From Chloroflexota bacterium (GTDB lineage: Bacteria > Chloroflexota > Dehalococcoidia > DSGV01): 64,000 bases of DNA. The stretch spans positions 50,163 to 114,162 of the forward strand of contig JAJYLG010000001.1 of assembly GCA_021787985.1 (NCBI GenBank), read 5' to 3'. A program made the translations under genes and the position numbers. The notes beneath the pieces are model-generated. The model searched no databases. It was given only the letters and a program-made list of their open reading frames with translations, and was not told the DNA's origin. Position 1 is the first letter of the stretch. Each line of letters begins with the position of its first letter. Positions 7,487-39,976 of this stretch are shown piece by piece.

Positions 7487-7495
7487 CCGGCCTTC

Positions 7496-11520: not shown

Positions 11521-11526
11521 GGCGGG

Positions 11527-11555: not shown

Positions 11556-11685
11556 GACGGCCGCCGCTCCCCCCGCCGGGCCCGCGCCGCCCCACTCGTC
11601 CGCGGGCTCGCTGCGCCTGGGATGCCGCTCGCCGGTTGCGTCGGGGCCCGCCAACCGCCCCGTCACCGAAGGGAGTGCTCGTTCG

Positions 11686-15357: not shown

Positions 15358-15660
15358 TTCGCTGCTCGTTTCCTCCAAGCCTGCCTCCTCGGCGAACGAT
15401 GAGGTCGGATTGTCCACGGGGGCTCCCTGCTCGCCTCGGTGGCCCGTAACTTCCCTCGCCGCCGGCAGCAGGGGCCGACGCGCGGCGGCGCAGGAGGGAG
15501 CGTGGACGGGCCTTGCCGATGCTTCGCCGGCGCGGCGAGCCGCGGTCGCAGGCGAGGCCGGCAGTTCCTCCGCAAGCAGCCCATGCTGCCGAACGAGGGT
15601 GGGCCAGCGGCGGAAGGAGCGCGGCTGGCGCGGGCAACAGAGAGCGGCCCACCGGGCCAT

Positions 15661-15689
15661 ATTATCGACTATCGACCAAAATGGATCAA
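15661..15689 (-). promoter_or_regulatory. Second copy of the promoter/operator element (TTGATC-N17-GATAAT with CGATAGTCGATAAT)
   Basis: This is the same architecture as the 11527-11555 element. It lies ~300 nt upstream of the CoA-transferase 3/4 gene pair. Confidence 0.5.
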
Positions 15690-17336: not shown

Positions 17337-17733
17337 CTGGCGACCGCGGCCCTACGTTCGCCTGCGGTGATTGCGGGACATCGGAACGCCCTCCCCCCGG
17401 TCGTCGTCGCGTCGACGGTGCTCACCCGTGCTCCGAGATGATTATGACAATGGCCACGGCGCGTAGTCAATCGCGGTGGCCGTCCGATCAATGTGACATG
17501 CCGGCCAGGCCTGCCAAGCAACGGTTCGTGCGCACCGCGTTGCACCACGGCGCGATCGCGCCAAGTGAGGCCCGACACATGCCGTCCCTGGAATTCGCGC
17601 CCGGTGTTGGCGATGACATACGTTGCGCCAGAGTGCTATGCTTTCTCCGACGCCGCTCGATGGCCGCAAGATTGAGATCGTACCGATCGGCGGATTCTCA
17701 CCGGATCACGCGCGTTGGAGCGAGGACACATTA

Positions 17734-18660
17734 ATGGTTCGAGACATCGTCATTGTCGGAGCAGGGGTCGCCGGTCTGAGCGCCGGGTTGATCGCAGCGC
17801 AGAGCGGGTTTGACACGGTGGTGGTTGATCCGCTGGGCGGCGGCGGCCAATTGGTCAACATCGACCGAGTGCTGAACTACCCGGGGCTCGATGAGATCCA
17901 CGGCTTCGATCTGGGTCCCCGGATCGCCACCCAGGCGATGGACCAGGGAGTGTCGTTTGTCCTCGGAACCGTCGACGGTCTGCGAGCGGAGGCCGACGAG
18001 CTCGACGTCGTCCTGGACTCGGGCGACGTGATCACGGGGAAGTCCGTCATCCTGGCGATGGGTTCCAGCATCCGCCGAGCCGGGATTGAAAACGAAGAGG
18101 CGTTCGAGGGACGGGGCATCTCGTACTGTGGCGTGTGCGATGGTCCGTTCTTTGCCGGGCGCGAGATCGCCGTCGTCGGCGGTGGGGACTCGGCCGCCGA
18201 CGAAGCGCTGTACCTGGCGACCCTCGCCAAGCGCGTGCACCTTGTCTTCCCGGCCGGCGAGATGCACGCCATGGCTGCGGCCCAGAAGCGGCTCCGCGAG
18301 CTGAATAATGTTGTGTTGATGCCAAACTACAGAGTGGCCCAAGCGGCCGGCGACGGCAGCGGCTTGAAGCGACTCCAGTTGGTGGACGTCCGCGACAGCT
18401 CCACCGCCGACCTCGAGGTGGAAGGAGCATTCTTGTACACCGGGCTGGCTTCCAGCACGGCGTTTCTGAAGGGGTTGATGGAGCTCGATGAGGGCGGGCA
18501 CGTGGTCACCGATGCCTGTCTGCGGACGAACGTGCCCGGAATCTTCGCCGCGGGCGACATCCGCCAGTTCTCGGTGAAGCTGCTCGCGGCCGCGGCCGGG
18601 GACGGCGCCAGCGCGGCGGTCTGGGCCGGCCGCTACCTGCGCGGGCAGCGCAGTTCGTAG
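17734..18660 (+). CDS. FAD/NAD(P)-dependent pyridine nucleotide-disulfide oxidoreductase, thioredoxin-reductase-like
   Basis: Begins MVRDIVIVGAGVAGLSAG and has a redox-active CGVC plus a second GGGDSA dinucleotide motif. A GAGGA RBS lies 8 nt upstream of the ATG at 17734. Confidence 0.8.
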   Translation: MVRDIVIVGAGVAGLSAGLIAAQSGFDTVVVDPLGGGGQLVNIDRVLNYPGLDEIHGFDLGPRIATQAMDQGVSFVLGTVDGLRAEADELDVVLDSGDVITGKSVILAMGSSIRRAGIENEEAFEGRGISYCGVCDGPFFAGREIAVVGGGDSAADEALYLATLAKRVHLVFPAGEMHAMAAAQKRLRELNNVVLMPNYRVAQAAGDGSGLKRLQLVDVRDSSTADLEVEGAFLYTGLASSTAFLKGLMELDEGGHVVTDACLRTNVPGIFAAGDIRQFSVKLLAAAAGDGASAAVWAGRYLRGQRSS

Positions 18661-18715: not shown

Positions 18716-19342
18716 CTACGTTGCCAGCAGCCAGTCGACGACGCGCCGGTACTGCGCAAGCGGCACCTCGCCGACAACGCGAACGGCGCCGGCCGCGTCG
18801 GCGAGCAGCACCGTCGGCACCGCGGTGATGCCGCGTGTCTGAGCCTCGATGAAGTCGGCGAGCACCGCTGCCCGCTGTGTGCCCTCGTCGAGGTCGCGCT
18901 GGAAGCCCGCCACGTCCAGCCCCGCGCTGTCGGCCACCTGGATGAGCACGTCTCGCTGTGAGATGTCCCGGTTGAGCTCGAAGTAGGCGCGCAGCAGCGC
19001 CTCGTGGTAGCGAGCGAATGCTTCTGCACCCTGCCGCTCGGCGCACTTTCCGGCCTCCAGGGCCGGCAGGCTGTGTGAGGGCATGTCGCGGTCGTCGGGC
19101 CACGGGTGGAAGGTGACGCCATCCGGCGCGCCCATCTCTGCGGCCATTCGCCAGGACTCGCGCGTGTGGTCGTCGGGGCGACGGCCCTCGGCCTCAGGCT
19201 CAGGTCGCAGCGGGTAGGCTTTCCACGTGACGTTCACGCTTCCCGCGTACGTGTGCGTGATCTTGCGCAGACGAACCGCCGCGTTGTAGCACCACGGTCA
19301 GAGGTAATCCGAGTACGCGGTGACGATGACTGGCCCAGCCAT
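18716..19342 (-). CDS. DsbA/FrnE-like thiol-disulfide oxidoreductase with in-frame TGA (predicted selenocysteine, UPWC motif)
   Basis: Translation from ATG 19340-19342 reads MAGPVIVTAYSDYL-TGA(19298-19300)-PWCYNAAVRLRKI.... The TGA sits where DsbA/FrnE proteins have the first Cys of CPWC. The downstream ORF 18716..19237 is in the same frame and continues a DsbA fold (...GITAVPTVLL...). A GAGG RBS is present. A hairpin lies 14 nt after the TGA. Confidence 0.7.
19266..19283 (-). other. SECIS-like stem-loop downstream of the DsbA-like TGA
   Basis: The mRNA forms CGCGG-CGGUUCGU-CUGCG (5 bp stem including a G-U pair, loop with GGUU), starting 14 nt after the UGA. Confidence 0.35.
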
Positions 19343-19432: not shown

Positions 19433-21751
19433 TTACGCCCGCTGCCCCGGTTCTGTACGTTCCCTCGAAGACGAGCGCCGGACACGGGCGGCACGCGGCG
19501 CCCTGGTCTTGGTGGGAGACCGTGTGGCCGCGGCGGACAGGTCCGGCGCCGCCGATGGCTCGGGATCCGCAGCGCCGGTGCCCCCGAGCCCGTGGAGGTC
19601 GGGTGGTCGCCGTGCTTCGCCGATCGCCTTCCTGAAATGGCGGGCCGCAAGCGCCAAGCGCTCGGGCTCAGGCTCCTGACCCCGTTCGATCTGCTCCCGG
19701 ACGGCGAGCATGGTCGCCCGGCGACAGACGAAGCCGATGCGCCCGCCGGTCCAGCCGTCCGTGAGGTCGGCGAGCGTCTCCACTTCCACGTCATCCGCGA
19801 GAGGCTTGCCGTTCAGGTGTAGCTGGAAGATCTCCAGCCTCGCGGCCTTGGCCGGGAGCGGAAGCTCGATTACCAGCTCGAACCGACCGGGAGTCAACAG
19901 CGCGGCGTCGATGGCCTCCGGCCGATTCGCTGCCGCCATCACGACGATGCCGTCCGTCTCGGCCAGCTCATCCATCTCGGTGAGAAGCTGGCTAACGATG
20001 CGATCAGTGACTTGCGTGTCGGACGCGGCGTCCCGTGCGGGCGCCAACGCGGCGAGATCATCAAAGAAGAGGATGCACGGGGCGGTAGTCCGGGCGCGGC
20101 GGAACGCTTCCCGCACTCCCTTCTCGGTCTCGCCGAGCCACTTCGAGAGCAGCTCCGCGCCTCGGACAGGAATCAACGTGCTCTTGCTTTCGCCCGCGAC
20201 GGCTCTGGCCAGGAGGGTCTTCCCAGCTCCTGAAGGTCCGTACAGCAGCACGCCTTTCGGCGGTCGCGCTTGCGCCCGCTGGAAGAGCGCTGGATACTTC
20301 GTCGGCCAGACGATGGCCTCGTCGAGCGCCTGCTTCGCCTCTTCCAGCCCCGCCACGTCGCTCCAGCCGGCCCGAGGTGTTTCGCTGGACAGGCCGCGCA
20401 TCGCGGCCGGCTTCAGACCTGCCAGCGCTTCGAAGAAGTCGGCGCCGCTGACGATCAGGCTCTCCAGTGAGCTGGGCGACCAGTCGCCGGCGTTGCCGCC
20501 GGACGGCGCCATCTCCTTCCTCAGGCGCACCATTGCCGCCTCGCGGCACAAGTTGGCCAGGTCGGCGCCGACGAAGCCATGGGTCAGGTCGGCGATGCTG
20601 GCCAGATCGACGTCCGCGGCGAGCGGCATGGGGTGAGTGTGGATGGCCAAAATCTCGAGCCGCCCGGAGGTACCCGGCACCGGCACGTGGATCTCACGGT
20701 CGAACCTGCCAGGCCGGCGCAGGGCGGGATCGAGCATGTCGGGAGCGTTTGTGGCAGCGATGACGATCACCTGCTCCCGTGACTCGAGGCCGTCCATGAG
20801 CGCCATCAACTGCGCCACGACTCGCTTCTCCACGTCTCCGTAGACGTCCTCGCGCTTGAGCGCGACGGCGTCGATCTCGTCGAAGAAGATGACCGAGGGC
20901 GCATTCTCGCGGGCCTCGCGGAACACCTCGCGCAGGCGCGACTCCGACTCGCCATAGAATTTGTGGAAGATCTCCGGACCGCTGACGTGGATGAAGTGGG
21001 CCGAGGTCTCGCCCGCGACTGCCCGGGCGACCAACGTTTTCCCCGTGCCAGGCGGACCGTACAGGAGCACCCCTTTCGGCGGCTCGATCCCCAGCCGTTC
21101 GAAGACCTCTGGATGGAGGAGAGGCAGCTCTACCACCTCGCGCACCCGCTGCAGTTGCAGCGTCAGGCCACCGACATCGGCATAGGTCGTCCGGGGTCCG
21201 GACTCCGACGCACCCACCTGCAGGGCTGTCTCCTCGCAGATCTCAGCCGGGCCCGCCGGCTCCGTCGATTTCACGATGAACTCCGCGGGCCGTAGCTGGT
21301 CATCGTCGATACAAAGGTAGTCGCCCGGCTGCACGACCATGCTCTGAAACCGTGAGCTCAGCTCCTTCGTTCTGTGTCCATCACGATCCGGGAAACCGCC
21401 CAGTGGCACGAGGAGCACTCGCTCTGCGGCCGGGCAGGCGGCGACCTGCACGATCGACGCCGGCTCTCCGAGGTTCACCCGAGCGTTGCGCCGCACCAGC
21501 GCGTCGGCCTGCACGATGCCCTTCCCGCGGTCCGCGGTCCGCGTAGGGTACACCCGCGCGTGGGCAGCTCGCTTGCCGTGAACACGGACGACCTCACCAA
21601 CATGGGCGCCGATGCGCTCCATGTCCGCCGGATCGATGCGGACGATGCCCCTCGCCGCGTCCTCGGTCGGGGCTTCGGCGACCCGGCGCTCGATGCCTAC
21701 TCCGCCGTCCATCCGGTCCCCACCGCGGGCAACGCGGCCATCCTCCGTCAC
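19433..21751 (-). CDS. Cdc48/VCP-like double AAA+ ATPase (Cpa/VAT-like unfoldase)
   Basis: It has an N-terminal double-psi-barrel-like domain and two AAA modules, each with Walker A GPPGTGKT / GPSGAGKT and a second-region-of-homology. The GTG start at 21751 overlaps the upstream stop (GTGA). An alternative ATG start lies at 21712. Confidence 0.85.
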   Translation of the reverse strand: MTEDGRVARGGDRMDGGVGIERRVAEAPTEDAARGIVRIDPADMERIGAHVGEVVRVHGKRAAHARVYPTRTADRGKGIVQADALVRRNARVNLGEPASIVQVAACPAAERVLLVPLGGFPDRDGHRTKELSSRFQSMVVQPGDYLCIDDDQLRPAEFIVKSTEPAGPAEICEETALQVGASESGPRTTYADVGGLTLQLQRVREVVELPLLHPEVFERLGIEPPKGVLLYGPPGTGKTLVARAVAGETSAHFIHVSGPEIFHKFYGESESRLREVFREARENAPSVIFFDEIDAVALKREDVYGDVEKRVVAQLMALMDGLESREQVIVIAATNAPDMLDPALRRPGRFDREIHVPVPGTSGRLEILAIHTHPMPLAADVDLASIADLTHGFVGADLANLCREAAMVRLRKEMAPSGGNAGDWSPSSLESLIVSGADFFEALAGLKPAAMRGLSSETPRAGWSDVAGLEEAKQALDEAIVWPTKYPALFQRAQARPPKGVLLYGPSGAGKTLLARAVAGESKSTLIPVRGAELLSKWLGETEKGVREAFRRARTTAPCILFFDDLAALAPARDAASDTQVTDRIVSQLLTEMDELAETDGIVVMAAANRPEAIDAALLTPGRFELVIELPLPAKAARLEIFQLHLNGKPLADDVEVETLADLTDGWTGGRIGFVCRRATMLAVREQIERGQEPEPERLALAARHFRKAIGEARRPPDLHGLGGTGAADPEPSAAPDLSAAATRSPTKTRAPRAARVRRSSSRERTEPGQRA

Positions 21752-22695
21752 AGCGGTCGGCCGTGCAGGGCCCCGCCCCGCCCTGGGTCGCGGGCATCCG
21801 TCGCTGCCAACGCTGCGTCGAACAGCGCGGACCCGCCAGCCGTGCCACCAGCGGCTGTCCGTTGCAAGTCCAGCTCCCCCAGACGTTCGAGCACCTGCCT
21901 CGTCGTGCTCGTCATGACGGCGTCGATGCCGAGCCCGGTCATCGTCGCGAGCGAGTCGCCCATCTCCTTGGCACGCCGTGCCAGGTGCTGGGCCCCCTGC
22001 ACGATGAAGTAGTCGGCAGCCGTGTCGAAGGTGTTGCCCGAACCGAGCCGCAACGGCCAGACGATGTCACCGAAGCGCTCCAAGTCTATGCCGGCCCTGC
22101 GGGCGGCCATGCCAACCTCCCACAGGAGCGCCGAGTAGCCCTTGGTCCCGACCGAACGGATCATCTTCAGCACCGAGGCCGTGCCGATCCGCTCGTCGAC
22201 GACGACGGCCGCAAGGTTGTATGGCGCCATGCGCTCGGCGAACGACGCGGCGGCCGGCCCGGAGACGTAGAGCGGCTGCCGATGGCCACCGTACACGACG
22301 GCTCCCATCAGCGCCGCGTCGATGAACTGCGCCCCGGCCTGCAGCACTGGGGCCGCGGCCGCGGCCTTCCTGTCGGGCGCGCACGAGTTCAGGTCCACGT
22401 ACATCTGCGGCGCAGACAGAAACGGGGCCGCTCGTTGCGCGGCTTCCACGGCGCTGTCCGTCGTCACCGCCGAAAACACGATATCCGACTCGGCGGAGAG
22501 GGCGGCGATCGTGTCCACGAGCCGGGCGCCCGCTTGGGCGGCGTGGCGGCGGAACGAAGCGGCGTAGGGAGGACGATGGCGCGGCCCATCGACGAAAGCA
22601 ACGATGTTGCGGATCCCGTCCTGCGACAATCCCCTCGCGTGGTGGTAGCCGACCTCGCCGAAGCCGATGTAGCCGATGCGCGGAGGTGTAGCCAT
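21748..22695 (-). CDS. NAD(P)-binding oxidoreductase (6-phosphogluconate/3-hydroxyisobutyrate dehydrogenase-like NAD-binding domain)
   Basis: Starts at ATG 22693-22695 (MATPPRIGYIGFGEVGYHHARGL...), which is a Rossmann GxGxxG motif. The ORF-track N-terminus is Arg-rich. Confidence 0.7.
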   Translation of the reverse strand: MATPPRIGYIGFGEVGYHHARGLSQDGIRNIVAFVDGPRHRPPYAASFRRHAAQAGARLVDTIAALSAESDIVFSAVTTDSAVEAAQRAAPFLSAPQMYVDLNSCAPDRKAAAAAPVLQAGAQFIDAALMGAVVYGGHRQPLYVSGPAAASFAERMAPYNLAAVVVDERIGTASVLKMIRSVGTKGYSALLWEVGMAARRAGIDLERFGDIVWPLRLGSGNTFDTAADYFIVQGAQHLARRAKEMGDSLATMTGLGIDAVMTSTTRQVLERLGELDLQRTAAGGTAGGSALFDAALAATDARDPGRGGALHGRPL

Positions 22696-22711
22696 GTGCG
22701 CGTGTGCCCGT

Positions 22712-23590
22712 CTATCCACGTCCCGCTCCGCCGTCCGGCGGCGACGCCAGTCCGAGCAACTGGCGCGGATTGTCGCGCGCCATGCGGCCGAGGTCGCCCT
22801 CGGAGAGGCCACCATGGAGGAGCTGCGCGATGAACGTGCGGAAGCCCTCCGGCGGCGACGGATTGATCGCCTGCCCCAGGTCCGTTGAGAGGACGCACTG
22901 GTCCGCGCCTACCGCGCGGATGGCCGTCGCCAGCGACTCCACCGTGTGCGTGCCGACGTGATAGGTGCACACCACGTACGCGTGCTCGATGAAAGCCCCG
23001 CGCCGAGCGAGCTCTTGCTGCCAATCGATCGGGATCCACATGTCGGCGTGCGTCACCACCGTGGGGATCCCGCGACGGCACGACTCGCCGACCAGCGCGT
23101 CCTGCTCCTCCACGGAGAGGTGACCCGTTCCCAGGACGAGGCTCCGGTGCTGAATGATGTCGAGGATGTCGAGAACGGCCGGGCGGAGCTTCCCGGTCTC
23201 ATTCAGTACGGTGATTCCCGGGCGACCGTAGCGTTCCCGACTCCAGTGGTCGGCCGTGAACGTCGGCATCCACACCTTTCGGGCGCCGACACCGGCGGCG
23301 ACCTCGACCGCCCGCGGATTGAGGCCGCCAACTGACTCGTTGAGCGTCACGCTGCCGAACACCTCAATCCCGGGGACCATGCGGTTCACGACGTACGCCA
23401 CCGGCGACGTGGGGTACTCGTGGCTCTTGAAGATGAAGCCGCCCATCCCCAGGTCGCGCGCGGCCGACGCCAGGTCGACGATGTCGTGCCTCCGCGGGGA
23501 ACCCGCATCCGGTGCCGCGTGCACATGGATATCGATCGCGCCTCTCAGGATGGCGTCAACCGTGGCGGTGAACTCTCCGTCCGCAACCAC
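22712..23590 (-). CDS. Amidohydrolase-2-type TIM-barrel metal-dependent hydrolase
   Basis: ...AIDIHVHAAPD... gives the HxH metal ligands, and ...GTGHLSVEE... and ...VVTHADMW... follow. At 292 aa it is typical of PF04909-like hydrolases. Confidence 0.6.
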   Translation of the reverse strand: MVADGEFTATVDAILRGAIDIHVHAAPDAGSPRRHDIVDLASAARDLGMGGFIFKSHEYPTSPVAYVVNRMVPGIEVFGSVTLNESVGGLNPRAVEVAAGVGARKVWMPTFTADHWSRERYGRPGITVLNETGKLRPAVLDILDIIQHRSLVLGTGHLSVEEQDALVGESCRRGIPTVVTHADMWIPIDWQQELARRGAFIEHAYVVCTYHVGTHTVESLATAIRAVGADQCVLSTDLGQAINPSPPEGFRTFIAQLLHGGLSEGDLGRMARDNPRQLLGLASPPDGGAGRG

Positions 23591-23599
23591 ATTCCGCTC

Positions 23600-24688
23600 C
23601 TACTCGCGCAAGTCCGCGACGCGCGCGACCGGCGTTCCGTCCCGTCGGCACAGCGCCCGCGTCACCGGACGCGTCTGGTCCCCGAACGTGGGTTGCCAGC
23701 TACTGTGCTTGCCGGCGCCTCCTACCACGATGACGGAGATCGCCTCCGGCGCATCTGCGATGGGCACCATCGTGTCATCTCGGTCTGGGAGCCCATTGCG
23801 GTGCGCCAGGAAGGCCCGGTACTCGGGGCCGAGGCGTCCCAACGGGAACCGTGCCTGCTCGAACAGGAACTGCTTCACCGTGCGCTTCGAGAACCCGTCC
23901 CGGGCAAGCGTGGCGGCGTGCTCTGGCCCCAGGCTCAGCAGCGGCCAGCCACGGCCGAGGAGATTGTTGCTTCCGGCCTCGCCCATGGCGCCCGCGATCA
24001 GGTGGAGGATGCCGATCCCGGTGGTGCTGTAATGGTCCTGAATGTTGTGCGGGCCCTCGCAGCCGAAGACGGTCACCGTGCTGGTGTCTGGCGCGAACCC
24101 GCGCTCGACGTGCAGCGGCTCCCAGGGATTTTGCTCTTCGTTTTCGGCCACGCAGTAGGCGATCTTTGCCGGGTTCCCTTGAGTGGCGCGATCGCCGCGA
24201 CCGGGCAGCCCTCCGCCGATGTTCATCAGGATGAGGCGCATGGCTCTGCCGATCGTTGCGTTCGCGCGAAAGCCCTGGCCGAACGCGTTGTAACCGGCAT
24301 TGATGCTGAGCTCGCGCGCGACTGGCCCGTTGACGACGACCAATGGCGCGACCGGGTGGGTTGTCGCCTGGATCGAGTCGATGTTGAACGCCGGGTCGGC
24401 GATCGCCTCCACTGCCGCGATCACGACCGGTAGGAATTCCGGCCGGCAGCCCGCCATGGCCGCGTTGATCGCGATCCTTTCCACCGTGGCCTCGCCCTGC
24501 CTCGGAGGCAGCACCGCGACGACCTCCTGGCGATCCCGGTCTGTCCAGCCGAGGAGCTCCTCGACGAGGTCCTCGGTGGGCGGCACGATCGGCAGGCCGT
24601 CGGTCCAGCCGCGTTCTTGGTAGAGCTCGTTGATCGCTCGATACGAGTCCTCGACGCGCAGCGTCCGGGCCGCCGCTCCGTCAGCCAC
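23600..24688 (-). CDS. Uncharacterised conserved protein, UGSC-associated partner A (paralog of 31116..32156)
   Basis: It shares N-terminal ...GWTDGLPIVPPTE... and a central ...GQGFRANATIGRAMRLILMNIGGGLPG... block with the paralog. The GTG start (second GTG, 24686-24688) lies 6 nt after a GGGAGGGA RBS and overlaps the UGSC-A stop by 8 nt. Confidence 0.65.
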   Translation of the reverse strand: MADGAAARTLRVEDSYRAINELYQERGWTDGLPIVPPTEDLVEELLGWTDRDRQEVVAVLPPRQGEATVERIAINAAMAGCRPEFLPVVIAAVEAIADPAFNIDSIQATTHPVAPLVVVNGPVARELSINAGYNAFGQGFRANATIGRAMRLILMNIGGGLPGRGDRATQGNPAKIAYCVAENEEQNPWEPLHVERGFAPDTSTVTVFGCEGPHNIQDHYSTTGIGILHLIAGAMGEAGSNNLLGRGWPLLSLGPEHAATLARDGFSKRTVKQFLFEQARFPLGRLGPEYRAFLAHRNGLPDRDDTMVPIADAPEAISVIVVGGAGKHSSWQPTFGDQTRPVTRALCRRDGTPVARVADLRE

Positions 24689-25256
24689 GCTCACTCCCTC
24701 CCTGAACGCCCGGAGCTGGCAGCGGCACGGCGGCGCTCACCGCTGTTGCCACCGCATCGGCGAGGTCCTTCGCCTTCGCCACCACCTCCTCCTCGGGGAT
24801 GCCCCCCAGCGGGTGCTGCGTGAGCGCGATCGGAAGCTCGGGCAGGCCGCGGTTCCGCGCCTCGAGCCGTGCGAGGGCCTGGAACTCGTCCGTACCGACC
24901 ACTACGGTAGGAACTCCCTGCTTCTCGAGCAGGATGGCGCCGTGGATACTCCACGACGTGCACGACCCTCAGTCCGCGCTGCCCACGATGACGAAGTCGC
25001 ACGTCATCAGGTCAGCCAGCACGTCCGGGGGAGGCGGTCCGGCGATGGGCTTCTCCCGCTTCAACACTTCGCGTATGCCGTGAAGCTCCTGCAGCCGCTT
25101 GGCGACCGACAGCATGAGGATGTCCGCGTTCGGCTTGCCGTTGTCCAGGATCCCGACGCGCGCGCCGGCGAGGCTGTCCAGTCGCGGCGCCAGCCTGACG
25201 GAGGCCACCTTGGGTTCGGCCGTCGGGTCATAAACTCTCGTCCAACGCTCGGTCAT
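24681..25256 (-). CDS. UGSC-motif small selenoprotein A (in-frame TGA at 24969-24971)
   Basis: Starts at ATG 25254-25256 with an AAGGGAG RBS. The ORFs 24969..25295 and 24681..24902 are in one frame and joined by a TGA: ...DFVIVGSAD-U-GSCTSWSIHGAILLEKQGVPTVVVGTDEF.... The paralog 32176..32718 has a TGA at the same aligned position. Confidence 0.7.
24939..24957 (-). other. SECIS-like stem-loop downstream of the UGSC-A TGA
   Basis: The mRNA forms GUCGUGG-AGUAU-CCACGGC (7 bp stem, 5-nt loop with GU), starting 11 nt after the UGA. Confidence 0.45.
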
Positions 25257-25366
25257 TGGCGTGCTCCCTTCGCCCTGCTGCTCTTCCTTCGCCACAGTCT
25301 ATGGGAACCCCCGTGCAGGAGGGCGAGACGCGCGCGAAGCTCGCCCTCCTGCATCAAGGTCGGCGG

Positions 25367-26848
25367 TTACTGGCCCTTCCAGGGGCAGGTGTCCGCGGCA
25401 CACGGATAGCCAGGAATGTTGCCGCGGATGCCGTGACCCTTGCTGGTCTCCATGTCGATCGGCGTCATCCCAGGGACCGGGACGAACCCCTTCGCGCTGG
25501 AATCCCAGTGCACCATCTGCACGGTCTCGATCGCCCAGTGGTCCTGGGCGCCGAACACGATTGGGCCGACGCAGAGGCTGCACTTCCAGCTTGACTGCAC
25601 GCTGAAGCCGGTTTGCATCGCATCGACCAGACCTTGCCGGGTCAGGTCCGGGCCGGCCAGCTCGAGGGAGTGGACCAGCATCTGCGTCCAGGCGATCCCG
25701 TCGAGGACGTAGGTGTTGAAGGCCAGCCCGTTCTGCTGCGCCCACGTCTTCGCCGCGGCCACCGCGGCCTCGTCCAGTTGATGGGTGGTGTAGATCCCGA
25801 GGTCAGCGGTCACGTTGTTGAAGTTCTGCGTTCCCGCGGCGACCGCGTTGCTGCTGCTCGCGCTCGACTGAGCGATCACCACCGGGCCGGTGTAGCCGGC
25901 CGTCTCGCGCAGGGCTTTGATGAACGGCACGATCGCGGTGCCCAGGAACGCCACGTAGTCCGGATGGGTGCTCGCGGCCTCCTGGGCTTGCGAGCTCAGG
26001 TCCGACGCGTTGGCGATGTTGTAGGTGATCGTCTTCGCGATCGTTGCGCTGGAGCTCGCCTGCGCCAATCCGACTTTGAAGCCCGCGAGCAGCGGCTGGC
26101 CGTAGGCGTCGTCCTGATAGACGACCGACACCTTCCCGCCGGGCTTCTGCTTGCCGACGTACGTGCCCAGCGCCAGCCCGTCTTCGAGCGCGGCCTGGCC
26201 GCCGCCGAACATCGTGGTGATCGTCGGCTCGGCCACCCAGGGCCCGTTCGCGAACAGGAAGATGTCGGGCACGCCCTTCGAGGCGTAGTACTTGTAGGTC
26301 GCCAGCTCACAGGCGACGCACAGGTTGCCGAACGTGGCGAACACTTTGTCCTGCTCCACGAGCTGCTTGGCGACGTCCGTGCCCCGCGCCGGAGTCCCGG
26401 CATTGTCCAGGTCGATCAGCTTGATCTTCCGGCCGAAGACGCCGCCGGCCTGGTTGACCGCGTCCACCACCTTCTGCATGGTCTGGGCGGTCGGGAGCCA
26501 CTGCGCCATGCCGCCGGTGTGGGGCGAGGAACGGCCGATTACGATGGTGTCCTTCGTTACGCCCGTGCGGTCGTCGCCTGCCGGCCGCGTCTTCGAGAGG
26601 GCAATGCAGTCGTTGATGGTGAACAGTCCGGCGACGCTCCGCGGGTCGCTTGCGATACCGGCCGGGCCGCATTTCCCGTTCCACGTGACGCCCGACGACG
26701 CCGTCGCCGTGTTGGAGGCGGCAGTGCCGGTGCTCCCCGGCTGAGTCGCCTTGGACGACTTGCTGCTGCACGCGGCCAGCGCCATGGCGACGACGGCCAC
26801 CAGCACCAACACGGTCAGCCGGACTCTCGACCTGGTGTAATCTCTCAT
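25367..26848 (-). CDS. ABC transporter substrate-binding lipoprotein (Liv-type periplasmic binding protein family)
   Basis: It has a signal peptide with a lipobox (...VLVLVAVVAMALAACSSKSS) and a type I PBP fold. Confidence 0.8.
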   Translation of the reverse strand: MRDYTRSRVRLTVLVLVAVVAMALAACSSKSSKATQPGSTGTAASNTATASSGVTWNGKCGPAGIASDPRSVAGLFTINDCIALSKTRPAGDDRTGVTKDTIVIGRSSPHTGGMAQWLPTAQTMQKVVDAVNQAGGVFGRKIKLIDLDNAGTPARGTDVAKQLVEQDKVFATFGNLCVACELATYKYYASKGVPDIFLFANGPWVAEPTITTMFGGGQAALEDGLALGTYVGKQKPGGKVSVVYQDDAYGQPLLAGFKVGLAQASSSATIAKTITYNIANASDLSSQAQEAASTHPDYVAFLGTAIVPFIKALRETAGYTGPVVIAQSSASSSNAVAAGTQNFNNVTADLGIYTTHQLDEAAVAAAKTWAQQNGLAFNTYVLDGIAWTQMLVHSLELAGPDLTRQGLVDAMQTGFSVQSSWKCSLCVGPIVFGAQDHWAIETVQMVHWDSSAKGFVPVPGMTPIDMETSKGHGIRGNIPGYPCAADTCPWKGQ

Positions 26849-26939
26849 CCTTTCCTCCCTGCACGAACTCCGAAGCGATGGTCATCGCTAATGACTTCAC
26901 GCGCTTCGCTACGGTGCCTGTTTGTCTGTTCGCACTCCT

Positions 26940-28442
26940 TCATCCGCTGCTTACCCGTTCTCTTTCCCGTGAGACCCCCCGCGTCTGTTCGTCCGCTCCG
27001 ACTCCTCCAGGAACGATCCGCCCGTGCAGCCACTCGCCTACCTCGGCCCAGGAAAGTGCATCGAGGTCGCGAGTGAAGCCGGCGAGACCGCCCGGCATCG
27101 CCAGCACCACGAGCAAGACCGCCGCGCCCGCGAAGGCGGGCTGCAGCGCCACGACGTTGAGAAACGTCGAGGTGATGAAGCGCAGCCCCGCGAGCACGCC
27201 GACGGCGATGACCGCGGCCACCACCACAGCTCCGGTCACGAGACCGGCACGGGTCACGGGGCTGGCAGGCCTCGCCATGAAAGAGCGCGTAGTACGCGGC
27301 AGCACCGACCTCCGCGAGAACCAGAGCAAGACGAGGACCGTGATCAGCGCCACGACCAGCACATCCGCCCAGTTTCGCGAGCCGCTCTGAAACGCGCTGG
27401 AGAAGGCCTGTACGCCTTGTTGGTAGATGTAGACGAGAAAGAAGCCGCCCAGGATGGACCCGAGGATCGACGCCCTGCCGCCGATCACCATCGCCAGCAG
27501 GAACTCGATCGACTGGGTAAGCGTGAACCCGTCCGGCGCCACGCTGCGGTTGTTCAACAGGAACCACAGCCCGCCGGCCACGCCGGCGAGCGCCGCGCTG
27601 ACCACGAAGGCCGAGATCTTGACCAGCGCGATGTCGACGCCCATCGCCGTTGCGGCGTTCTCGTCGTCGCGCGTGGCGGTCAGAGCGCGCCCCGCCGCCG
27701 AACGGACGAGATTGCTGACCAGCCAGATCGCCACCAGCAGCACCAGCAGCCCAACGAAGTAGTGCCACCGCTCCGAGGTCAGCCAGTGCCACGAAACCGG
27801 CGGGCCGAATGCGCGGCTGAACTCGCTCAGCCCGTTGAAGCTGCCGGTGTACTTCTCGAGCTCGTGCACCTGCAGGACCTCCGGGAAGGCGACCGTGATC
27901 GCCAGCGTGACCAGGCCGAGGTAGTGGCCACGCAAGCGGAGGGCGGGCACCCCGATCAGCAGGCCGACAGCGGCGGTAGCGGCCGCGCCGATGGCGACCG
28001 CCAGCACGATGCTGAGGTGCCCCTGTCCCGTGGCGATCGCCGCCGCGTACGCCCCGATCCCCAGCAGCGCCGCGTGACCGATCGAGATCTGGCCGGTGTA
28101 GCCCGTCACCAGGTTGAGGCTGAGGACGATGAGCGACACGACCAGCGCGCGGTCCATCAGGCTGACCGCGAAGGTGCTCTTGGCAACTCCAGGTAGGACC
28201 ACCGCGAACAGCGCCGCGCCGATCGCCCATCCGAGACGTGCGGAGGAAACCCCGCGGCCCGCCTGCGCTCCGCGCCGAGTCCGACGCCACGAGGCGAGCA
28301 TCACCGCGGCGCCGACGGCGCCGACCGCAAGCCCCGCGCGCGGGCCGGCCACGTAGACCGCGAACCACAGCCCCACGATGAGCGCCAGGAGCTCGACCGG
28401 CGTCGGTATGACGGACGCCGTGGCCCAGGCGGCCCGTTTCAT
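26940..28442 (-). CDS. ABC permease, LivM-like
   Basis: It is polytopic, with a LivM-type core ...GYTGQISIGHAALLGIGAYAAAIATG.... The stop overlaps the upstream LivH-like gene start by 4 nt. Confidence 0.8.
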   Translation of the reverse strand: MKRAAWATASVIPTPVELLALIVGLWFAVYVAGPRAGLAVGAVGAAVMLASWRRTRRGAQAGRGVSSARLGWAIGAALFAVVLPGVAKSTFAVSLMDRALVVSLIVLSLNLVTGYTGQISIGHAALLGIGAYAAAIATGQGHLSIVLAVAIGAAATAAVGLLIGVPALRLRGHYLGLVTLAITVAFPEVLQVHELEKYTGSFNGLSEFSRAFGPPVSWHWLTSERWHYFVGLLVLLVAIWLVSNLVRSAAGRALTATRDDENAATAMGVDIALVKISAFVVSAALAGVAGGLWFLLNNRSVAPDGFTLTQSIEFLLAMVIGGRASILGSILGGFFLVYIYQQGVQAFSSAFQSGSRNWADVLVVALITVLVLLWFSRRSVLPRTTRSFMARPASPVTRAGLVTGAVVVAAVIAVGVLAGLRFITSTFLNVVALQPAFAGAAVLLVVLAMPGGLAGFTRDLDALSWAEVGEWLHGRIVPGGVGADEQTRGVSRERERVSSG

Positions 28443-29359
28443 AGCTTGACCACCCGTTTCCGGCCGAATAGTCCCTGGGGCCGGACGATAAGCAGCACCA
28501 CGATGACCACCAGCGCGATCAGGTCACGGTACTGCTGCGGCTGGGCGATGTTGAACGGGAGGTGCAGCCATCGCACCACGTTGCCGAGGTAGACTCCGGT
28601 CAAGCTCTGCAGCACGCCGAGAAGAACGCCACCGACCAGTGTGCCGACCATGCTGTCCAGCCCGCCCACGACCGCCGCGGCGAACGCGAACACCAGGACG
28701 ACGTCCATCATGTTGGGCGTCAGGCTCAGCAACTGCGCCAGAAGCATCCCGGCGACGCCCGCGCACGCGATCCCCAGACCCCAGGCGAGCATCATCATGC
28801 GGTCCGTTGGAACGCCGGCCAGCTCGGCGGCCGTGCGGTTTGCCGCCGTGGCTCGCAGCACCAGACCAAGGCGGGTGTGCCGGAAGAGAAGGTACAGGGC
28901 GAGGACGAGCGCCAGCGAAACGCCGAAGAGGTACAGCGACGCTCGCCCGATGTGCACACCATGCAGGTCGATCGGCGGCCCCGCGAACGGCTGCGGAAAC
29001 GGATGAGGCTGACCACCGTAGATGCCAACGGTCAGCCCGTAGAACACGAACAGCAGTCCCAGCGTGACGATCAGCGGATTGAGCCCGGTGCGCTCCTTCT
29101 CCGGGACCATTCGGATCACCAGGCGCTCCACCAGCGCACCCACCACGAAGGCGACGATCGTGCCGAGCAGGAAGCCGGCCGGGTAGGGCAGCCGGAGCAA
29201 CAACGACCAGGCGATGAACGTCACGAACGTGCCCATCGCTGCCTGTCCGAAGTTGATGATCTCCGTCGCCTGGGCGATGACGACCAGTCCAAGCCCCACG
29301 ACCGCGTAGACGCTGCCTGTCAGTGCACCCGTGATCGTCTGCTGGAGGAGCTGGGTCAT
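28439..29359 (-). CDS. ABC permease, LivH-like
   Basis: Contains MTQLLQQTITGALTGSVYAVVGLGLVVI... and ...INFGQAAMGTFVTFIA.... Four-nt overlaps on both sides. Confidence 0.85.
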   Translation of the reverse strand: MTQLLQQTITGALTGSVYAVVGLGLVVIAQATEIINFGQAAMGTFVTFIAWSLLLRLPYPAGFLLGTIVAFVVGALVERLVIRMVPEKERTGLNPLIVTLGLLFVFYGLTVGIYGGQPHPFPQPFAGPPIDLHGVHIGRASLYLFGVSLALVLALYLLFRHTRLGLVLRATAANRTAAELAGVPTDRMMMLAWGLGIACAGVAGMLLAQLLSLTPNMMDVVLVFAFAAAVVGGLDSMVGTLVGGVLLGVLQSLTGVYLGNVVRWLHLPFNIAQPQQYRDLIALVVIVVLLIVRPQGLFGRKRVVKL

Positions 29360-30168
29360 GTGGAAGCGGCCCCCTGCCCGAGATAGCTTCGTCGTACTTG
29401 TTCGCTGCCGCGCAGCTCCGCCGCCGAGCCGACGGACATGACCGTCCCGGTCTCGATGACGTATCCCAAGTCGGCGATACTCAGGGCGATCCCCACGTTC
29501 GGCTCCGCCATGAGCACCGCGACGCCTTGCTCGCGGTTGATGCGCGTGATGATCCGATAGATGTCCCGGACCACAAGCGGCGCCAGGCCCAGCGATGGCT
29601 CGTCCAGCAGCAGCAGCCGAGGACTGGCCATCAGCGCGCGAGCGATCACCAGCATCTGCTGTTCGCCGCCCGACAGCGTGGCCGCGCGCTGCCTGCTGCG
29701 CTCTTTCAGGATCGGGAAATACTCGAACGCCCGCTCCAGCGCGGTGGCGATCGCGGACCGGCCTCGCGTGGAGTACGCGCCGACCATGAGGTTCTCTTCA
29801 ACCGTTAAGTCCGCGAACAGCGGTCGTCGCTCGGGCACATGGACGAGACCGCGGTGCACCAGTGAGCTCGGCCGCTGTCCCACGATCGACTCGTCCTCGA
29901 ATTCGATCGACCCGGCGTCTGGTCGTGCCAGGCCCGAGATGGCGCGCAGCAGCGTGGACTTGCCGGCCCCGTTTGCGCCCAGCAGGGCCACCACGCCATG
30001 GCGCTTCACTTCGAGGTTGACGCCGTGCAGGACCCGGAGCTTGCCGTACGAGACCCACAGGTCGCGCACCCGCAGCATGGGATGCGCGCCATCTGCCGAC
30101 GCGGTCGCCCGGTCCTCCCCGCGTGAGCAAACACTCGTACCGGCTTCTCCGCCGGCCTTCTCACTCAT
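29356..30168 (-). CDS. ABC ATP-binding protein, LivF-like
   Basis: Has GANGAGKST and LSGGEQQML. The ATG at 30166-30168 overlaps the upstream stop (ATGA). A shorter start at 30078 (MLRVRDLWVSYG) is possible. The ORF-track start at 30297 is an artefact. Confidence 0.75.
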   Translation of the reverse strand: MSEKAGGEAGTSVCSRGEDRATASADGAHPMLRVRDLWVSYGKLRVLHGVNLEVKRHGVVALLGANGAGKSTLLRAISGLARPDAGSIEFEDESIVGQRPSSLVHRGLVHVPERRPLFADLTVEENLMVGAYSTRGRSAIATALERAFEYFPILKERSRQRAATLSGGEQQMLVIARALMASPRLLLLDEPSLGLAPLVVRDIYRIITRINREQGVAVLMAEPNVGIALSIADLGYVIETGTVMSVGSAAELRGSEQVRRSYLGQGAAST

Positions 30169-30965
30169 CAGCCGCCCGATACCGCCGTTTCTGCCACCGA
30201 GTCGAGCTCGCCGAGGTATGCCAGCACCACCGCGGGATCGCGCTGGACCGCGTCCGGCGGGCCATCCGCGATCTTCTGCCCGAAGTTGAGCACGCATACC
30301 CTGCTCGAGATGCTCATGACGAGACCCATGTGATGTTCGACGAGCACGATGGTGACGCCGGCCTCGCGCCTCACGCCGAGGATGACGTCCGCCAGCTCCG
30401 CCACCTCCTCGTGGTTCAAGCCGGCTGCCGGCTCATCGAGCAGCAGCAGCTTGGGAGCCGACATGAGCGCGCGCGCCAGCTCGACGCGCTTGCCCGTCTG
30501 CACGGAAACCTCGCTTGCCTTGCGATAGGCGACAGCGGCCAGCCCGAGCTGCTCGATCAGCTCGCCCGCCCGACGGCGAAGCGCCTGCTCGGATGCCCGC
30601 AGCCGCGCCCACGGAACCATCGAGACGAAGGGGTTGGTCACGGCTCCGGAATGGCCGCCGACGAGGATGTTCTCCAGCACCGACATCGACGGGAAGAGCG
30701 CCACATTCTGGATGGTGCGGGCAATGCCCAGGGCCGCAACCTGCTTCGGCCGAACCGGCCGCAGATCCTTCCCGTCGAACTGTATGGCTCCCGCATCCCA
30801 GTCGTAGAACCGCGAGACGCAGTTGAGCAGCGTGGTCTTGCCGGCCCCGTTCGGGCCGACCACCGCGCAGATCTCTCCGGCCGCGACGTCCAGACTCACG
30901 TCCTGGAGCGCCTGCACACCGCCGAAGCTCAGCGACACGCCACGCACCGAGAGCACCGAGGTCAT
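30168..30965 (-). CDS. ABC ATP-binding protein, LivG-like
   Basis: Contains MTSVLSVRGVSLSFGGVQAL... then GPNGAGKTT... then LLLLDEPAAGLN. Confidence 0.85.
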   Translation of the reverse strand: MTSVLSVRGVSLSFGGVQALQDVSLDVAAGEICAVVGPNGAGKTTLLNCVSRFYDWDAGAIQFDGKDLRPVRPKQVAALGIARTIQNVALFPSMSVLENILVGGHSGAVTNPFVSMVPWARLRASEQALRRRAGELIEQLGLAAVAYRKASEVSVQTGKRVELARALMSAPKLLLLDEPAAGLNHEEVAELADVILGVRREAGVTIVLVEHHMGLVMSISSRVCVLNFGQKIADGPPDAVQRDPAVVLAYLGELDSVAETAVSGG

Positions 30966-31115
30966 GTCTTACCGTCGCGTGCTCGCTGTCGGCGGCGCCG
31001 GACAGTCCTCAACTCCACCATCGACCCAACCGACTCTCCACGGTCCGGCTGATCTCCTGTCTCCAACGCGTATTCGCCGCGGCAGCGGCGGGCCGGGCGG
31101 CCGGCTCCGCGGCCA

Positions 31116-32156
31116 TCACGGCGCCACCGCCAGGTCACGCACGACGGCCGAGGTCATTTGTGTGTCTCCAAAGTTCGAGCAGACCGTGACGTGATACGGC
31201 TCGTCCCCGCCCGCCACGACCAGCACGATGTCTTCCGGCTGGGCGGCGACGGCATGCTCTTCCGAGATGGCGCGGCGCTCGGGGCGGCCGCCCAGGGCCT
31301 GGATCTCGTCCGGGAAGCGCGACCGCGGCACCTTCGCGTGCTCGTACAGCCATTCCTTGGTGCGCTGCTTGTCGTAGCCCTGGCTCTGGAGCAGATTGGC
31401 GTGGCCGTAGCTCATGATCACCAGCGGATTCCCGTGCTGGAACTCGACGTTGTTGGCGCCCACCTGCCCGAGCGTGTCCGCCACCGCCAGCAGCACGCTC
31501 TCCGCCTTCTTGTAGATGGCGAGGACGTTGGCCGTCCCGATCGCCCCGACGCAGGTAACGACACTCTCGTTCGCAGCGAAACCTCGTTCGACGTGCAGCG
31601 GGGGCCACGGGCTGCGCTCCTCGTCCTCGCCGAAGCAGAACGTGTACTTCCCCGGCATCCCGTGCAGCGCCTGGTCCACGGTGCCGGGAGCGGCGCCACC
31701 GATGTGCAGCATGCAGAGGCGGACCGCCCGCCCGATCGTGGCGTTCGCGCGCCAGCCGGGGCCGAGCAGCCCGCGCTGGCAGTTGATGCCGATCGTGCGT
31801 CGTATCGGCCCGTTGACGATGATGGCGGGTCCAACGGGATTGGTCGTGGTCTGGATGCCGTGGAGGTTGAAATCGGGGATCGCCAGCGCCTCGACCGCGG
31901 CGATAACCGTCGACATGTACTCCGGCAGGCAGCCCGCCATCACCGCGTTGGCCGCGATCGTCTCGATGGTGGCCGCGCCCCCCGCCGGGTCGAGGTAGGC
32001 GATGAGCTCGTCCGGCGGGCGTGCGGTCGCCGCCACCATGGCCGCGACCCGCTCCTCCGTCGGGGGTATCAGGGGCAGTCCGTCTCCCCAGCCCTGGGCC
32101 TGGGCGTAGTCCAACCACCCATCGAGTGAGTCCGGGACCTCTCGAACGGTAGCCAC
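31116..32156 (-). CDS. Uncharacterised conserved protein, UGSC-associated partner B (paralog of 23600..24688)
   Basis: Contains ...GWGDGLPLIPPTEE... and ...GPGWRANATIGRAVRLCMLHIGGAAPG.... It has a GTG start 20 nt after the UGSC-B stop. Confidence 0.65.
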   Translation of the reverse strand: MATVREVPDSLDGWLDYAQAQGWGDGLPLIPPTEERVAAMVAATARPPDELIAYLDPAGGAATIETIAANAVMAGCLPEYMSTVIAAVEALAIPDFNLHGIQTTTNPVGPAIIVNGPIRRTIGINCQRGLLGPGWRANATIGRAVRLCMLHIGGAAPGTVDQALHGMPGKYTFCFGEDEERSPWPPLHVERGFAANESVVTCVGAIGTANVLAIYKKAESVLLAVADTLGQVGANNVEFQHGNPLVIMSYGHANLLQSQGYDKQRTKEWLYEHAKVPRSRFPDEIQALGGRPERRAISEEHAVAAQPEDIVLVVAGGDEPYHVTVCSNFGDTQMTSAVVRDLAVAP

Positions 32157-32175
32157 AATGCCGCAGACGACCTCC

Positions 32176-32718
32176 TTACGCTTCCAGCGGGCGCGGCGCC
32201 GCCACTTTGGCGACCACGTCGTCGATCGCGTTCCTGATCACGCCGCGCGAGCTCTCGGTGTCGCCGAACTCGGTTACCTCGGTTGGCGGAAGCACCACCA
32301 TCGGGGAGCTGCTCGCCCCCTTACCCTTGAACGTGACCGTGGCGAGGTTGACGAACCGCTCGGTCACCAGTACCACGGACGGGATGCCCCGTCGAATCAG
32401 CTCGATCGTGTCGTGGACACTCCACGCGGTGCAGGACCCTCAGTTGGCGAGCCCCACGATGGCGATGTCGGCGTTCTCCGTCGCCTGTTGGAGCACGGCC
32501 TCCGACGCGGCGGCGGCGATGGGCACCTCGAACTCGAGGACCTGCGCGACGCCGAACTCATTGACCAGCGTGCCGCGCATCTCGTCGACCAGCTTGTTCA
32601 TGCTCTGCCAGCCGTTGTTGAGAAAGACGACGGACTTGCCCCGCAGGTCTTGCGGGGCGAACTCCGCGGTCACTCGGGTCGCACGAAACGCACCAGCCGT
32701 CGGTTCTACGATCCGCAT
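32176..32718 (-). CDS. UGSC-motif small selenoprotein B (in-frame TGA at ~32440-32442)
   Basis: Starts at ATG 32716-32718 with a GGGAGAAACAC RBS. ORFs 32440..32718 and 32176..32376 are in the same frame: ...DIAIVGLAN-U-GSCTAWSVHDTIELIRRGIPSVVLVTERF.... This is the same architecture as UGSC-A. Confidence 0.7.
32411..32425 (-). other. SECIS-like stem-loop downstream of the UGSC-B TGA
   Basis: The mRNA forms CGUGG-AGUGU-CCACG, 14 nt after the UGA. It is near-identical in shape to the UGSC-A hairpin (loop AGUGU versus AGUAU). Confidence 0.4.
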
Positions 32719-32737
32719 GTGTTTCTCCCACCAGGCG

Positions 32738-32751
32738 ATTATCGATTATCG
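32738..32751 (-). promoter_or_regulatory. Third copy of the AT-rich motif (perfect tandem GATAATCGATAAT in gene orientation), 20 nt upstream of the UGSC-B start
   Basis: ATTATCGATTATCG on the plus strand. It is -10-like, but there is no obvious -35. Confidence 0.45.
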
Positions 32752-32840
32752 GCCCTTCCCGCTCGTACCCGCCGAGAATAGCCACCCGCCCGCGCAGCGT
32801 CAAGCTCCCCACGTCGGACGTCGTTCGCAGCCGCGGCAGG

Positions 32841-33065: not shown

Positions 33066-33141
<76 letters not shown>

Positions 33142-39899: not shown

Positions 39900-39976
39900 G
39901 GGCGGTTAGCTCAGTTGGTTAGAGCGCCACGTTGACATCGTGGAGGTCACTGGTTCGAGTCCAGTATCGCCCACCA
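39900..39976 (+). tRNA. tRNA-Val (anticodon GAC)
   Basis: Acceptor GGGCGGT/ATCGCCC with a G-U pair, D-arm GCTC-AGTTGGTTA-GAGC, anticodon loop TTGACAT, T-arm ACTGG-TTCGAGT-CCAGT, and an encoded CCA. Confidence 0.9.

Follow-up and report, generated by a model that had tools for sequence, protein, structure and literature searches.

The 64,000-nucleotide stretch analysed here (the window), part of contig JAJYLG010000001.1 from a Dehalococcoidia member of the Chloroflexota, contains two copies of a two-gene module in which the gene for a small selenoprotein with a U-G-S-C motif (UGSC-A, UGSC-B) is followed by the gene for a protein of about 350 amino acids (partner-A, partner-B). The question that this locus raises is what such a pair does, and whether the genes around it are part of the same system. 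In the initial annotation the two modules, the Liv-type ATP-binding cassette (ABC) importer lying between them, an amidohydrolase, an NAD-dependent oxidoreductase and a Cdc48-like ATPase were read as one string of genes in which the pair acts on the imported substrate. Our analysis points to a patchwork of neighbouring transcription units, the conserved core of which would be a two-subunit selenoenzyme composed of UGSC and its partner, and this is the reading that, on balance, we favour. On this reading the enzyme would probably be a reductase fed by NAD(P)H, with a role in the catabolism of small organic acids.

The pairing of UGSC with the partner was observed directly. Scanning one genome for each GTDB species yielded at least 599 partner loci, 80 of which were kept for counts, and in 74 of these 80 partner-anchored genome loci the UGSC gene is found on the same strand at no more than 1.6 kb from the partner gene; three of the six loci without an adjacent UGSC are at contig ends. 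The usual order is UGSC followed by the partner, and it is reversed in Dehalococcoidia. The pair is present in Methylomirabilota, Binatia, Alpha-, Beta- and Gammaproteobacteria, Dehalococcoidia and Acidimicrobiia, and moreover in Acidobacteriota, Bacillales (Robertmurraya), Halobacteria (Natrialba) and Thaumarchaeota. Natural fusions of the two proteins also exist and are frequent. Those of the cysteine (Cys) type have 528-570 amino acids with PF24696 at the N-terminus, and 14 in-frame fusions containing selenocysteine (Sec) were found in the loci. The structural model of a fusion protein behaves as one rigid body (pLDDT 94, pTM 0.93). The adjacency in 74 of 80 loci and the natural fusions bear out the earlier proposal that UGSC and its neighbour of about 350 amino acids are a genuine functional pair. 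Among cultured organisms the system is carried by Robertmurraya sp. 2P01SA, as a Sec fusion in a PrpR-regulated operon, and by Vineibacter terrae, as a pair, and natural Cys forms occur in Natrialba asiatica and a Sphingomonas. The loci L018, L019 (5530-11035), L027, L028 and L043 each contain two or three UGSC/partner modules, and in L019 three Sec-containing fusions stand in tandem. The system thus behaves like a family of enzymes that has expanded and diversified in substrate.

Both small proteins of the window were assigned to UGSC by profile searches. UGSC-A gave 171.8 bits against PF24696 (cut-off 25) and 136.5 bits against NF041046 (cut-off 125), and UGSC-B gave 115 bits against PF24696 (cut-off 25) and 86.7 bits against NF041046, which is under the equivalog cut-off of 125. 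The two are about 33% identical. Each gene has an in-frame TGA whose read-through leads into G-S-C-T-(S/A)-W, and the homologous loci have TGA at the motif position in 65 cases and Cys in 3. A hairpin resembling a selenocysteine insertion sequence (SECIS) was located in both genes. Across 36 homologues pairing holds for 87.8% of its cells, and for 22-48% in controls with a slid 3' arm; both sides have changed in five of the eight pairs, the covariation score was reached by none of 500 shuffles, and the G-U of the loop is almost invariant. Judged from these sequence comparisons, the Sec decoding of the UGSC genes is real. The modelled protein is a flavodoxin-like alpha/beta protein of about 180 amino acids carrying the U-G-S-C centre, and no thioredoxin fold was found around the redox motif in this model.

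UGSC is a recognised selenoprotein family without an assigned function (PMC1976440, PMC2398784, PMC9312934, PMC13188914). In the literature from Zhang & Gladyshev (2007/2008) through 2026 its function is given as unknown and its fold as 'likely Trx-like' (PMC2398784, PMC9312934, PMC13188914), and a 2026 review groups it with prokaryotic selenoproteins that are largely uncharacterised in function (PMC13188914). It is nevertheless among the most abundant selenoproteins of aquatic metagenomes, with 255 sequences in the Global Ocean Sampling (GOS) data, and that marine metagenome study had already pointed out a 'UGSC/Unknown_1' domain fusion (PMC2398784). Unknown_1 is probably the partner domain. 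The UGSC homologues of the public databases are mostly fragments of about 97-110 amino acids that end at the TGA, and the search with full-length UGSC-A likewise returned mostly TGA-truncated fragments and no informative new fusions. In many 'partner' entries of 410-460 amino acids the N-terminal extension is the post-TGA half of UGSC. Public annotation is thus systematically wrong for this system, UGSC being truncated at the TGA and 'partner' open reading frames (ORFs) carrying spurious N-terminal UGSC fragments.

The initial annotation had called the partner family uncharacterised, and in this it was right: neither partner-A nor partner-B has a Pfam or NCBIfam match at E<=0.01. The family is nonetheless very large. 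Partner-B is matched by 4,377 database proteins at E<=1e-60, and there are at least 8,000 close matches and at least 5,857 representatives at 50% identity, all of them 'hypothetical' in every source that names them. The model of partner-A is of high quality (pLDDT 95.7, pTM 0.94). A Foldseek search with this model against solved structures, also proposed in the initial annotation, returned no relative at E<=0.001, with TM-scores of 0.23-0.28, and a sequence-profile search of the PDB gave no match. The only weak structural matches that recur are class I fumarate hydratase and CyuA, both Fe-S enzymes, and MmgE/PrpD proteins. The conserved polar residues (partner-A numbering) are D32, C83, T111/T112, N145, R150, C181, E184, E186 and H259, with R150 and E184 invariant. 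Partner-A and partner-B are 42% identical. The description of two modules flanking the importer is correct as far as their presence is concerned, and the duplication is not a recent one, the partners (42%) and the UGSC proteins (about 33%) being old paralogues. Tandem partner-partner fusions, or adjacent paralogue pairs in Alphaproteobacteria, were also seen (P0155, P0224 and P0255, of about 715 amino acids; L059, L062, L068 and L073), and protein P0156 has an unrelated N-terminal domain in the place where UGSC would be.

Unbiased clustering of the neighbouring genes, complemented by Pfam checks, brought out the genes that accompany the pair. A thioredoxin reductase (TrxR) paralogue with a CxxCDG motif, which scores 156-325 bits against TIGR01292 and so falls under the cut-off of 343, lies no more than 3.5 kb from the pair in 6 loci, and no locus has it beyond 5 kb; several have it immediately upstream in the same orientation. 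Of 83 partner loci 6 have an adjacent TrxR-type gene, as do 11 of 80 DUF6282 loci, and protein P0199 is a fusion of the partner with a TrxR-like Pyr_redox_2 domain. In the window such a paralogue is found some 700 bp past the end of the string, convergent with a DsbA-like selenoprotein gene. It shares 34% identity with the TrxR-like gene at the head of UGSC operons in other loci, and may be considered a candidate electron donor.

The second companion is DUF6282, which sits between or beside the UGSC and partner genes. The operon TrxR-like-UGSC(Sec)-DUF6282-partner was found in the metagenome loci L091, L092, L094, L151 and L160 and in the genome locus L027, and the partner is located on the same strand within 1.5 kb in 21 of 80 DUF6282-anchored metagenome loci. 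DUF6282 has an HxH...H...H...D pattern, in which six orthologues share H22, H24, H157 and D237 without exception, as the four closest do H181. Its profile match and these predicted metal ligands indicate a metal-dependent protein of the amidohydrolase superfamily; a single-sequence search of the PDB gave no match, and no mention of DUF6282 was found in the literature searched. The closest solved proteins to the NAD_binding_2/DUF1932 protein (4ezb, 3qsg and 1i36) are all uncharacterised. The DUF6282 and DUF1932-dehydrogenase genes of the window also occur together in Robertmurraya (L041) and in L088. The hydrolase and the NAD-oxidoreductase, which the initial annotation had tied to the pair, do recur with it in distant phyla.

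The wider neighbourhoods are those of uptake and catabolism. Liv-type ABC, TRAP and TTT transporters recur near the pair, as do genes for CoA-transferases, acyl-CoA dehydrogenases and enoyl-CoA hydratases (ECH). In L041 the order is PrpR-type sigma-54 activator, ECH, MmgE/PrpD, Sec fusion and TRAP DctM, followed by DUF6282, DUF1932 dehydrogenase, Ldh_2, thioesterase and MaoC. In L083 a 70% orthologue of partner-B comes after GntR/FCD, MaoC, acyl-CoA dehydrogenase, luciferase-like monooxygenase (LLM) and two family-III CoA-transferases, and in L084, which holds another orthologue, genes for a TRAP DctPQM transporter and a dienoyl-CoA-reductase-like flavoprotein come after the pair.

Starting from the pairing, which alone is observed, we infer a redox cycle with its direction of electron flow, a docking geometry, roles for Arg150, Cys83 and Glu184 and a class of substrate. 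UGSC would dock onto the partner of about 350 amino acids, whose fold was previously unannotated and which would supply the pocket with the invariant or near-invariant Asp32, Cys83, Asn145, Arg150, Cys181, Glu184 and His259 (partner-A numbering). A small carboxylate substrate would bind to the partner with Arg150 as its likely anchor, and the UGSC selenolate would act as nucleophile or reductant, after which a selenenyl-sulfide would form with the UGSC Cys. This would be re-reduced with NAD(P)H by the TrxR paralogue, which in some genomes is adjacent to the pair or fused to the partner. The family would be present in multiple copies, diversified in substrate and embedded in gene sets for uptake plus catabolism. 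In the window, module B (UGSC-B, partner-B) would head the Liv-type importer unit, and module A (UGSC-A, partner-A, DUF6282 and the NAD-binding dehydrogenase) would be a rearranged form of the widespread TrxR-like-UGSC-DUF6282-partner operon.

Several observations weigh against such an enzyme. The TrxR-like gene is present in a minority of the loci only, and that of the window is encoded on the other strand, with two genes in between. Cys181 of the partner is replaced in several homologues. In the fusions P0131, P0133, P0193, P0264, P0228 and P0257 UGSC has lost one or both of the U/C-x-x-C residues and the partner keeps Cys83 and Cys181; in view of the motif-less fusions (P0131, P0133, P0193, P0264) the partner may have a chemistry of its own and work, or act otherwise, without the redox chemistry of UGSC. 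Transporters of any class were counted in 27 loci near the pair and in 16 far from it, which is only a modest enrichment, and Bug/TctC, CaiB, LLM and ECH genes are simply very abundant in the host phyla. The earlier claim that the pair acts on the imported substrate is retained in part: the contexts of uptake and catabolism do recur, and the enrichment of transporters is modest (27 against 16). ABC ATPases, moreover, are not enriched at all (6 loci near and 6 far). A role of the pair as a specific accessory of the Liv transporter was considered and rejected on these two counts.

The alternative that survives best is that UGSC and its partner form a general thiol-disulfide or antioxidant/repair system, for example one that reduces peroxides, sulfoxides or disulfides, and have no part in the metabolism of the neighbours. 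The UxxC centre resembles the CxxC redox centres, and UGSC was earlier classed with the thiol oxidoreductases (PMC2398784). The TrxR paralogues adjacent or fused to the pair would fit such a system as well, and so would the very variable wider neighbourhoods. In the window the DsbA-like selenoprotein and TrxR paralogue genes adjoin the string, so that the whole could be seen as a 'redox island'. Set beside the selenoenzyme of organic acid catabolism, which remains the reading we prefer, we regard this as unlikely, with perhaps a modest chance of being right.

A different chemistry could be imagined from the weak structural matches of the partner, in which a metal or Fe-S centre between the subunits would have as ligands the Sec and Cys of UGSC and the partner residues Cys83 and Cys181. 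The enzyme would then be a hydro-lyase or isomerase without redox function, with a remote likeness to class I fumarate hydratase or cysteine desulfidase. However, the TM-scores of 0.23-0.28, with high root-mean-square deviations, are well under the level of homology, and Cys181, as said above, is replaceable. In addition, partners retain their cysteines where UGSC has lost its own, and the adjacency and fusion of the TrxR paralogue would be left unexplained. We consider this rival decidedly improbable, and continue with the two-subunit selenoenzyme.

Whether the twelve genes of the window work together was examined from their arrangement and its conservation. The ORF listing and translation confirmed twelve consecutive minus-strand genes from 19433 to 32718 in the order first described, and Pfam and NCBIfam searches recovered every family that had been named (Table 1). 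The junction distances, measured as -14 or -8 to +150 nucleotides, are as claimed; the 4-nucleotide overlaps were located at LivF/LivH, LivH/LivM and the NAD-binding gene/CDC48 junction, and the DsbA-like selenoprotein gene does follow CDC48 at +90 nucleotides. The co-directionality, the short gaps and these overlaps speak for a single operon, as does the fact that the only sigma-70-like promoter candidate between 18 and 33.5 kb lies upstream of UGSC-B, and L041 has a transporter, the pair, DUF6282 and the DUF1932 dehydrogenase together. Nevertheless, co-directionality is unremarkable here since from about 1.9 to 32.7 kb the window has hardly any gene on the plus strand. The promoter candidate is weak evidence, as 0.8 such sites are expected after shuffling, and the consensus promoter scan is insensitive at 69% G+C, the approximate value of the window. 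Translation of CDC48, moreover, may begin at an ATG 13 codons further on, and there would then be no overlap with the NAD-binding gene.

The initial annotation had made conservation of the neighbourhood a test of its proposal, and the outcome was divided: the two-gene core is conserved and the string is not. The full arrangement was found in none of 82 partner-anchored and none of 80 DUF6282-anchored loci, and the five closest orthologues of partner-A (71-76% identity; L001, L002 and L004-L006) have unrelated downstream genes. The CDC48 query had matches in 3 of the 82 loci, none of them adjacent to the pair. CDC48 was rejected as a component of the system because of this lack of conserved linkage in 82 related loci, and the Cdc48-like ATPase is most likely a bystander. 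Its assignment is itself borderline for the full-length model (802.6 bits against a TIGR01243 cut-off of 802.65), with 73.9 bits for CDC48_N and 25.4 bits for CDC48_2. A GC-rich perfect hairpin follows the stop codon of the binding-protein gene; it has no U-tract after it and is likely a transcript boundary or a stabiliser between the importer and module A. This strong hairpin, together with the gaps of 90-150 nucleotides that part the blocks, suggests three or four transcription units. A single operon and a single pathway of twelve genes, in which both modules, the hydrolase and the dehydrogenase would act on the imported compound and the Cdc48-like unfoldase would be an integral part, is for these reasons the least probable of the explanations considered.

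Table 1. Features of the string and of its immediate surroundings (window positions), with the distance in nucleotides from each gene to the one that follows it in the direction of transcription
Feature	Position	Strand	Distance to next gene	Remarks
Sigma-70-like promoter candidate TTGACG-17-TATTCT	32775-32803	-		downstream of tRNA-Lys 33066-33141
Near-palindromic operator-like motif CGATAATCGATAATCG	32736-32751	-		17 nucleotides upstream of the UGSC-B start codon
UGSC-B selenoprotein gene	32176-32718	-	+19	180 codons; TGA 32440-32442; motif N-U-G-S-C-T-A-W
SECIS-like hairpin of UGSC-B	32410-32428	-		8-bp stem, G-U-N loop; starts 14 nucleotides after the UGA
Partner-B	31116-32156	-	+150	346 amino acids; unannotated family
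LivG	30168-30965	-	+89, or -1 with alternative start	ATPase; Pfam ABC_tran + BCA_ABC_TP_C
LivF	29356-30078	-	-4	ATPase; Pfam ABC_tran + BCA_ABC_TP_C
LivH	28439-29359	-	-4	BPD_transp_2 permease
LivM	26940-28442	-	+91	BPD_transp_2 permease
Peripla_BP_6 substrate-binding lipoprotein	25367-26848	-	+110	142.9 bits PF13458; lipobox L-A-A-C
GC-rich perfect hairpin after binding-protein stop codon	25309-25359	-		intergenic region -53.5 kcal/mol, z = -2.4
UGSC-A selenoprotein gene	24681-25256	-	-14, or -8 with second GTG	191 codons; TGA 24969-24971; motif D-U-G-S-C-T-S-W
SECIS-like hairpin of UGSC-A	24939-24957	-		covarying among homologues
Partner-A	23600-24694	-	+9	364 amino acids, or 362 from second GTG at 24688; overlaps UGSC-A stop codon
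DUF6282 amidohydrolase-superfamily protein	22712-23590	-	+19	201.9 bits PF19799
NAD_binding_2 + DUF1932 protein	21748-22692	-	-4	beta-hydroxyacid-dehydrogenase/imine-reductase-like (Pfam)
CDC48-family double AAA+ ATPase	19433-21751	-	+90	TIGR01243, CDC48_N, CDC48_2, two AAA
DsbA-like selenoprotein gene	18716-19342	-		86 bits PF01323; TGA 19298-19300; motif U-P-W-C
Thioredoxin-reductase paralogue	17623-18660	+		motif C-G-V-C-D-G; 277.9 bits TIGR01292 (cut-off 343)

The operator-like motif in front of UGSC-B is not isolated. The form CGATA(A/G)TCGATAAT occurs at three minus-strand sites of the window (11525-11540, 15659-15674 and 32736-32751) against 0.14 expected. One precedes the gene of a GntR/FCD regulator (10789-11520), another two paired genes for family-III CoA-transferases (12861-14096 and 14098-~15300), and the third UGSC-B. 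The sites at 11525-11540 and 15659-15674 overlap a promoter-like arrangement, TTGAYC-17-GATAAT, and acyl-CoA dehydrogenases are encoded beside the motif-bearing GntR and CoA-transferase genes. The region between 9.4 and 15.7 kb has the same gene set as L083 and carries the motif in addition. From sequence, the three sites may mark a GntR regulon, and the arrangement suggests that module B and the importer could be under joint control with the CoA-dependent catabolism of acids. As the orthologous locus L083 lacks the motif, the idea of a regulon is supported within the window only.

Some further features of the window were recorded. A second Liv-type ABC importer is encoded on the minus strand at about 4964-9724, with ATPases 39% and 28% identical to LivG and with a fused or adjacent permease and a binding protein, and it adjoins acyl-CoA dehydrogenase genes at 9471-10649 (minus strand) and 11680-12831 (plus strand). 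Between the CoA-transferase genes and the TrxR paralogue is the gene of a sulfite-oxidase-like molybdopterin oxidoreductase (Oxidored_molyb + Mo-co_dimer; 15771-17336, minus strand) with an N-terminal membrane region. In the DsbA-like selenoprotein gene a stem-loop comes directly after the UGA (-19.6 kcal/mol, z = -1.4). A tRNA-Lys(CTT) gene (33066-33141, minus strand) lies about 350 nucleotides upstream of UGSC-B, and a tRNA-Val(GAC) gene (39900-39976) and a tmRNA gene (45790-46143) with the tag GEPQLALAA are on the plus strand; no tRNA-Sec gene was found in the window.

What is new in these results is the near-obligate pairing of UGSC with a huge, unmodelled and structurally orphan family, the recurrent operon with TrxR-like and DUF6282 genes, the list of cultured organisms carrying the system and a UGSC model that appears flavodoxin-like rather than thioredoxin-like. 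With the pairing, the fusions, the TrxR paralogue and DUF6282, an orphan selenoprotein becomes a defined multi-component system with testable predictions, and this gives access to a selenoprotein family that, though among the most abundant, still lacks an assigned function. The natural Cys forms of Natrialba asiatica and of a Sphingomonas can be expressed without the Sec machinery. More tentatively, and at somewhat less than even chances, UGSC and its partner could constitute an unrecognised class of Sec-dependent enzyme: an obligate heterodimer or fusion whose active site would lie where a flavodoxin-like Sec subunit meets a catalytic subunit with a novel fold, recharged by a dedicated TrxR paralogue and carrying out a reductive or Sec-nucleophile step on organic acids in aerobic bacteria and archaea of soil, freshwater and the sea. 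To our knowledge such Sec-dependent chemistry has until now been described solely for the glycine and proline reductases of anaerobes, which are unrelated.

When compared with known systems, the two small proteins of the window share with the UGSC family the U-G-S-C motif, a strong preference for Sec over Cys and the SECIS hairpin directly after the UGA; they differ in that a Trx-like fold was published as likely and the model obtained here is flavodoxin-like. The importer has the same standard complete set as the LIV-I/HAAT importers, LivG, LivF, LivH, LivM and a Peripla_BP_6 lipoprotein, and profile searches found it complete, with two ATPases, two permeases and the binding protein. The latter remained far under the curated cut-offs, with 48 bits against the branched-chain amino acid equivalog (cut-off 477) and 34 bits against the urea one (cut-off 493). 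Class I (Fe-S) fumarate hydratase and L-cysteine desulfidase CyuA, which are weakly the best structural matches of the partner, act on small carboxylic acids; the shared fold and the three cluster cysteines that define the Fe-S hydro-lyases were not found in the partner.

The closest systems, by proposed working principle only, are the glycine/sarcosine/betaine and D-proline reductases (GrdA/GrdB/GrdE, PrdA/PrdB). No homology to these was detected with PF07355 and PF09338: in Pfam at E<=0.01 the small proteins match only UGSC and the partners nothing. Moreover, no proprotein that would form a pyruvoyl group is evident here, and whereas the hosts of the Grd and Prd enzymes are amino-acid-fermenting anaerobes, those of UGSC and its partner are mostly aerobic or facultative lineages from soil, freshwater and the sea. 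The likeness lies in the division of labour that we propose, with a small or medium Sec subunit bearing a U/C-x-x-C/U centre next to a separate substrate-binding subunit, regeneration by a TrxR-type flavoprotein, small carboxylates as substrates and transporters encoded in the gene clusters.

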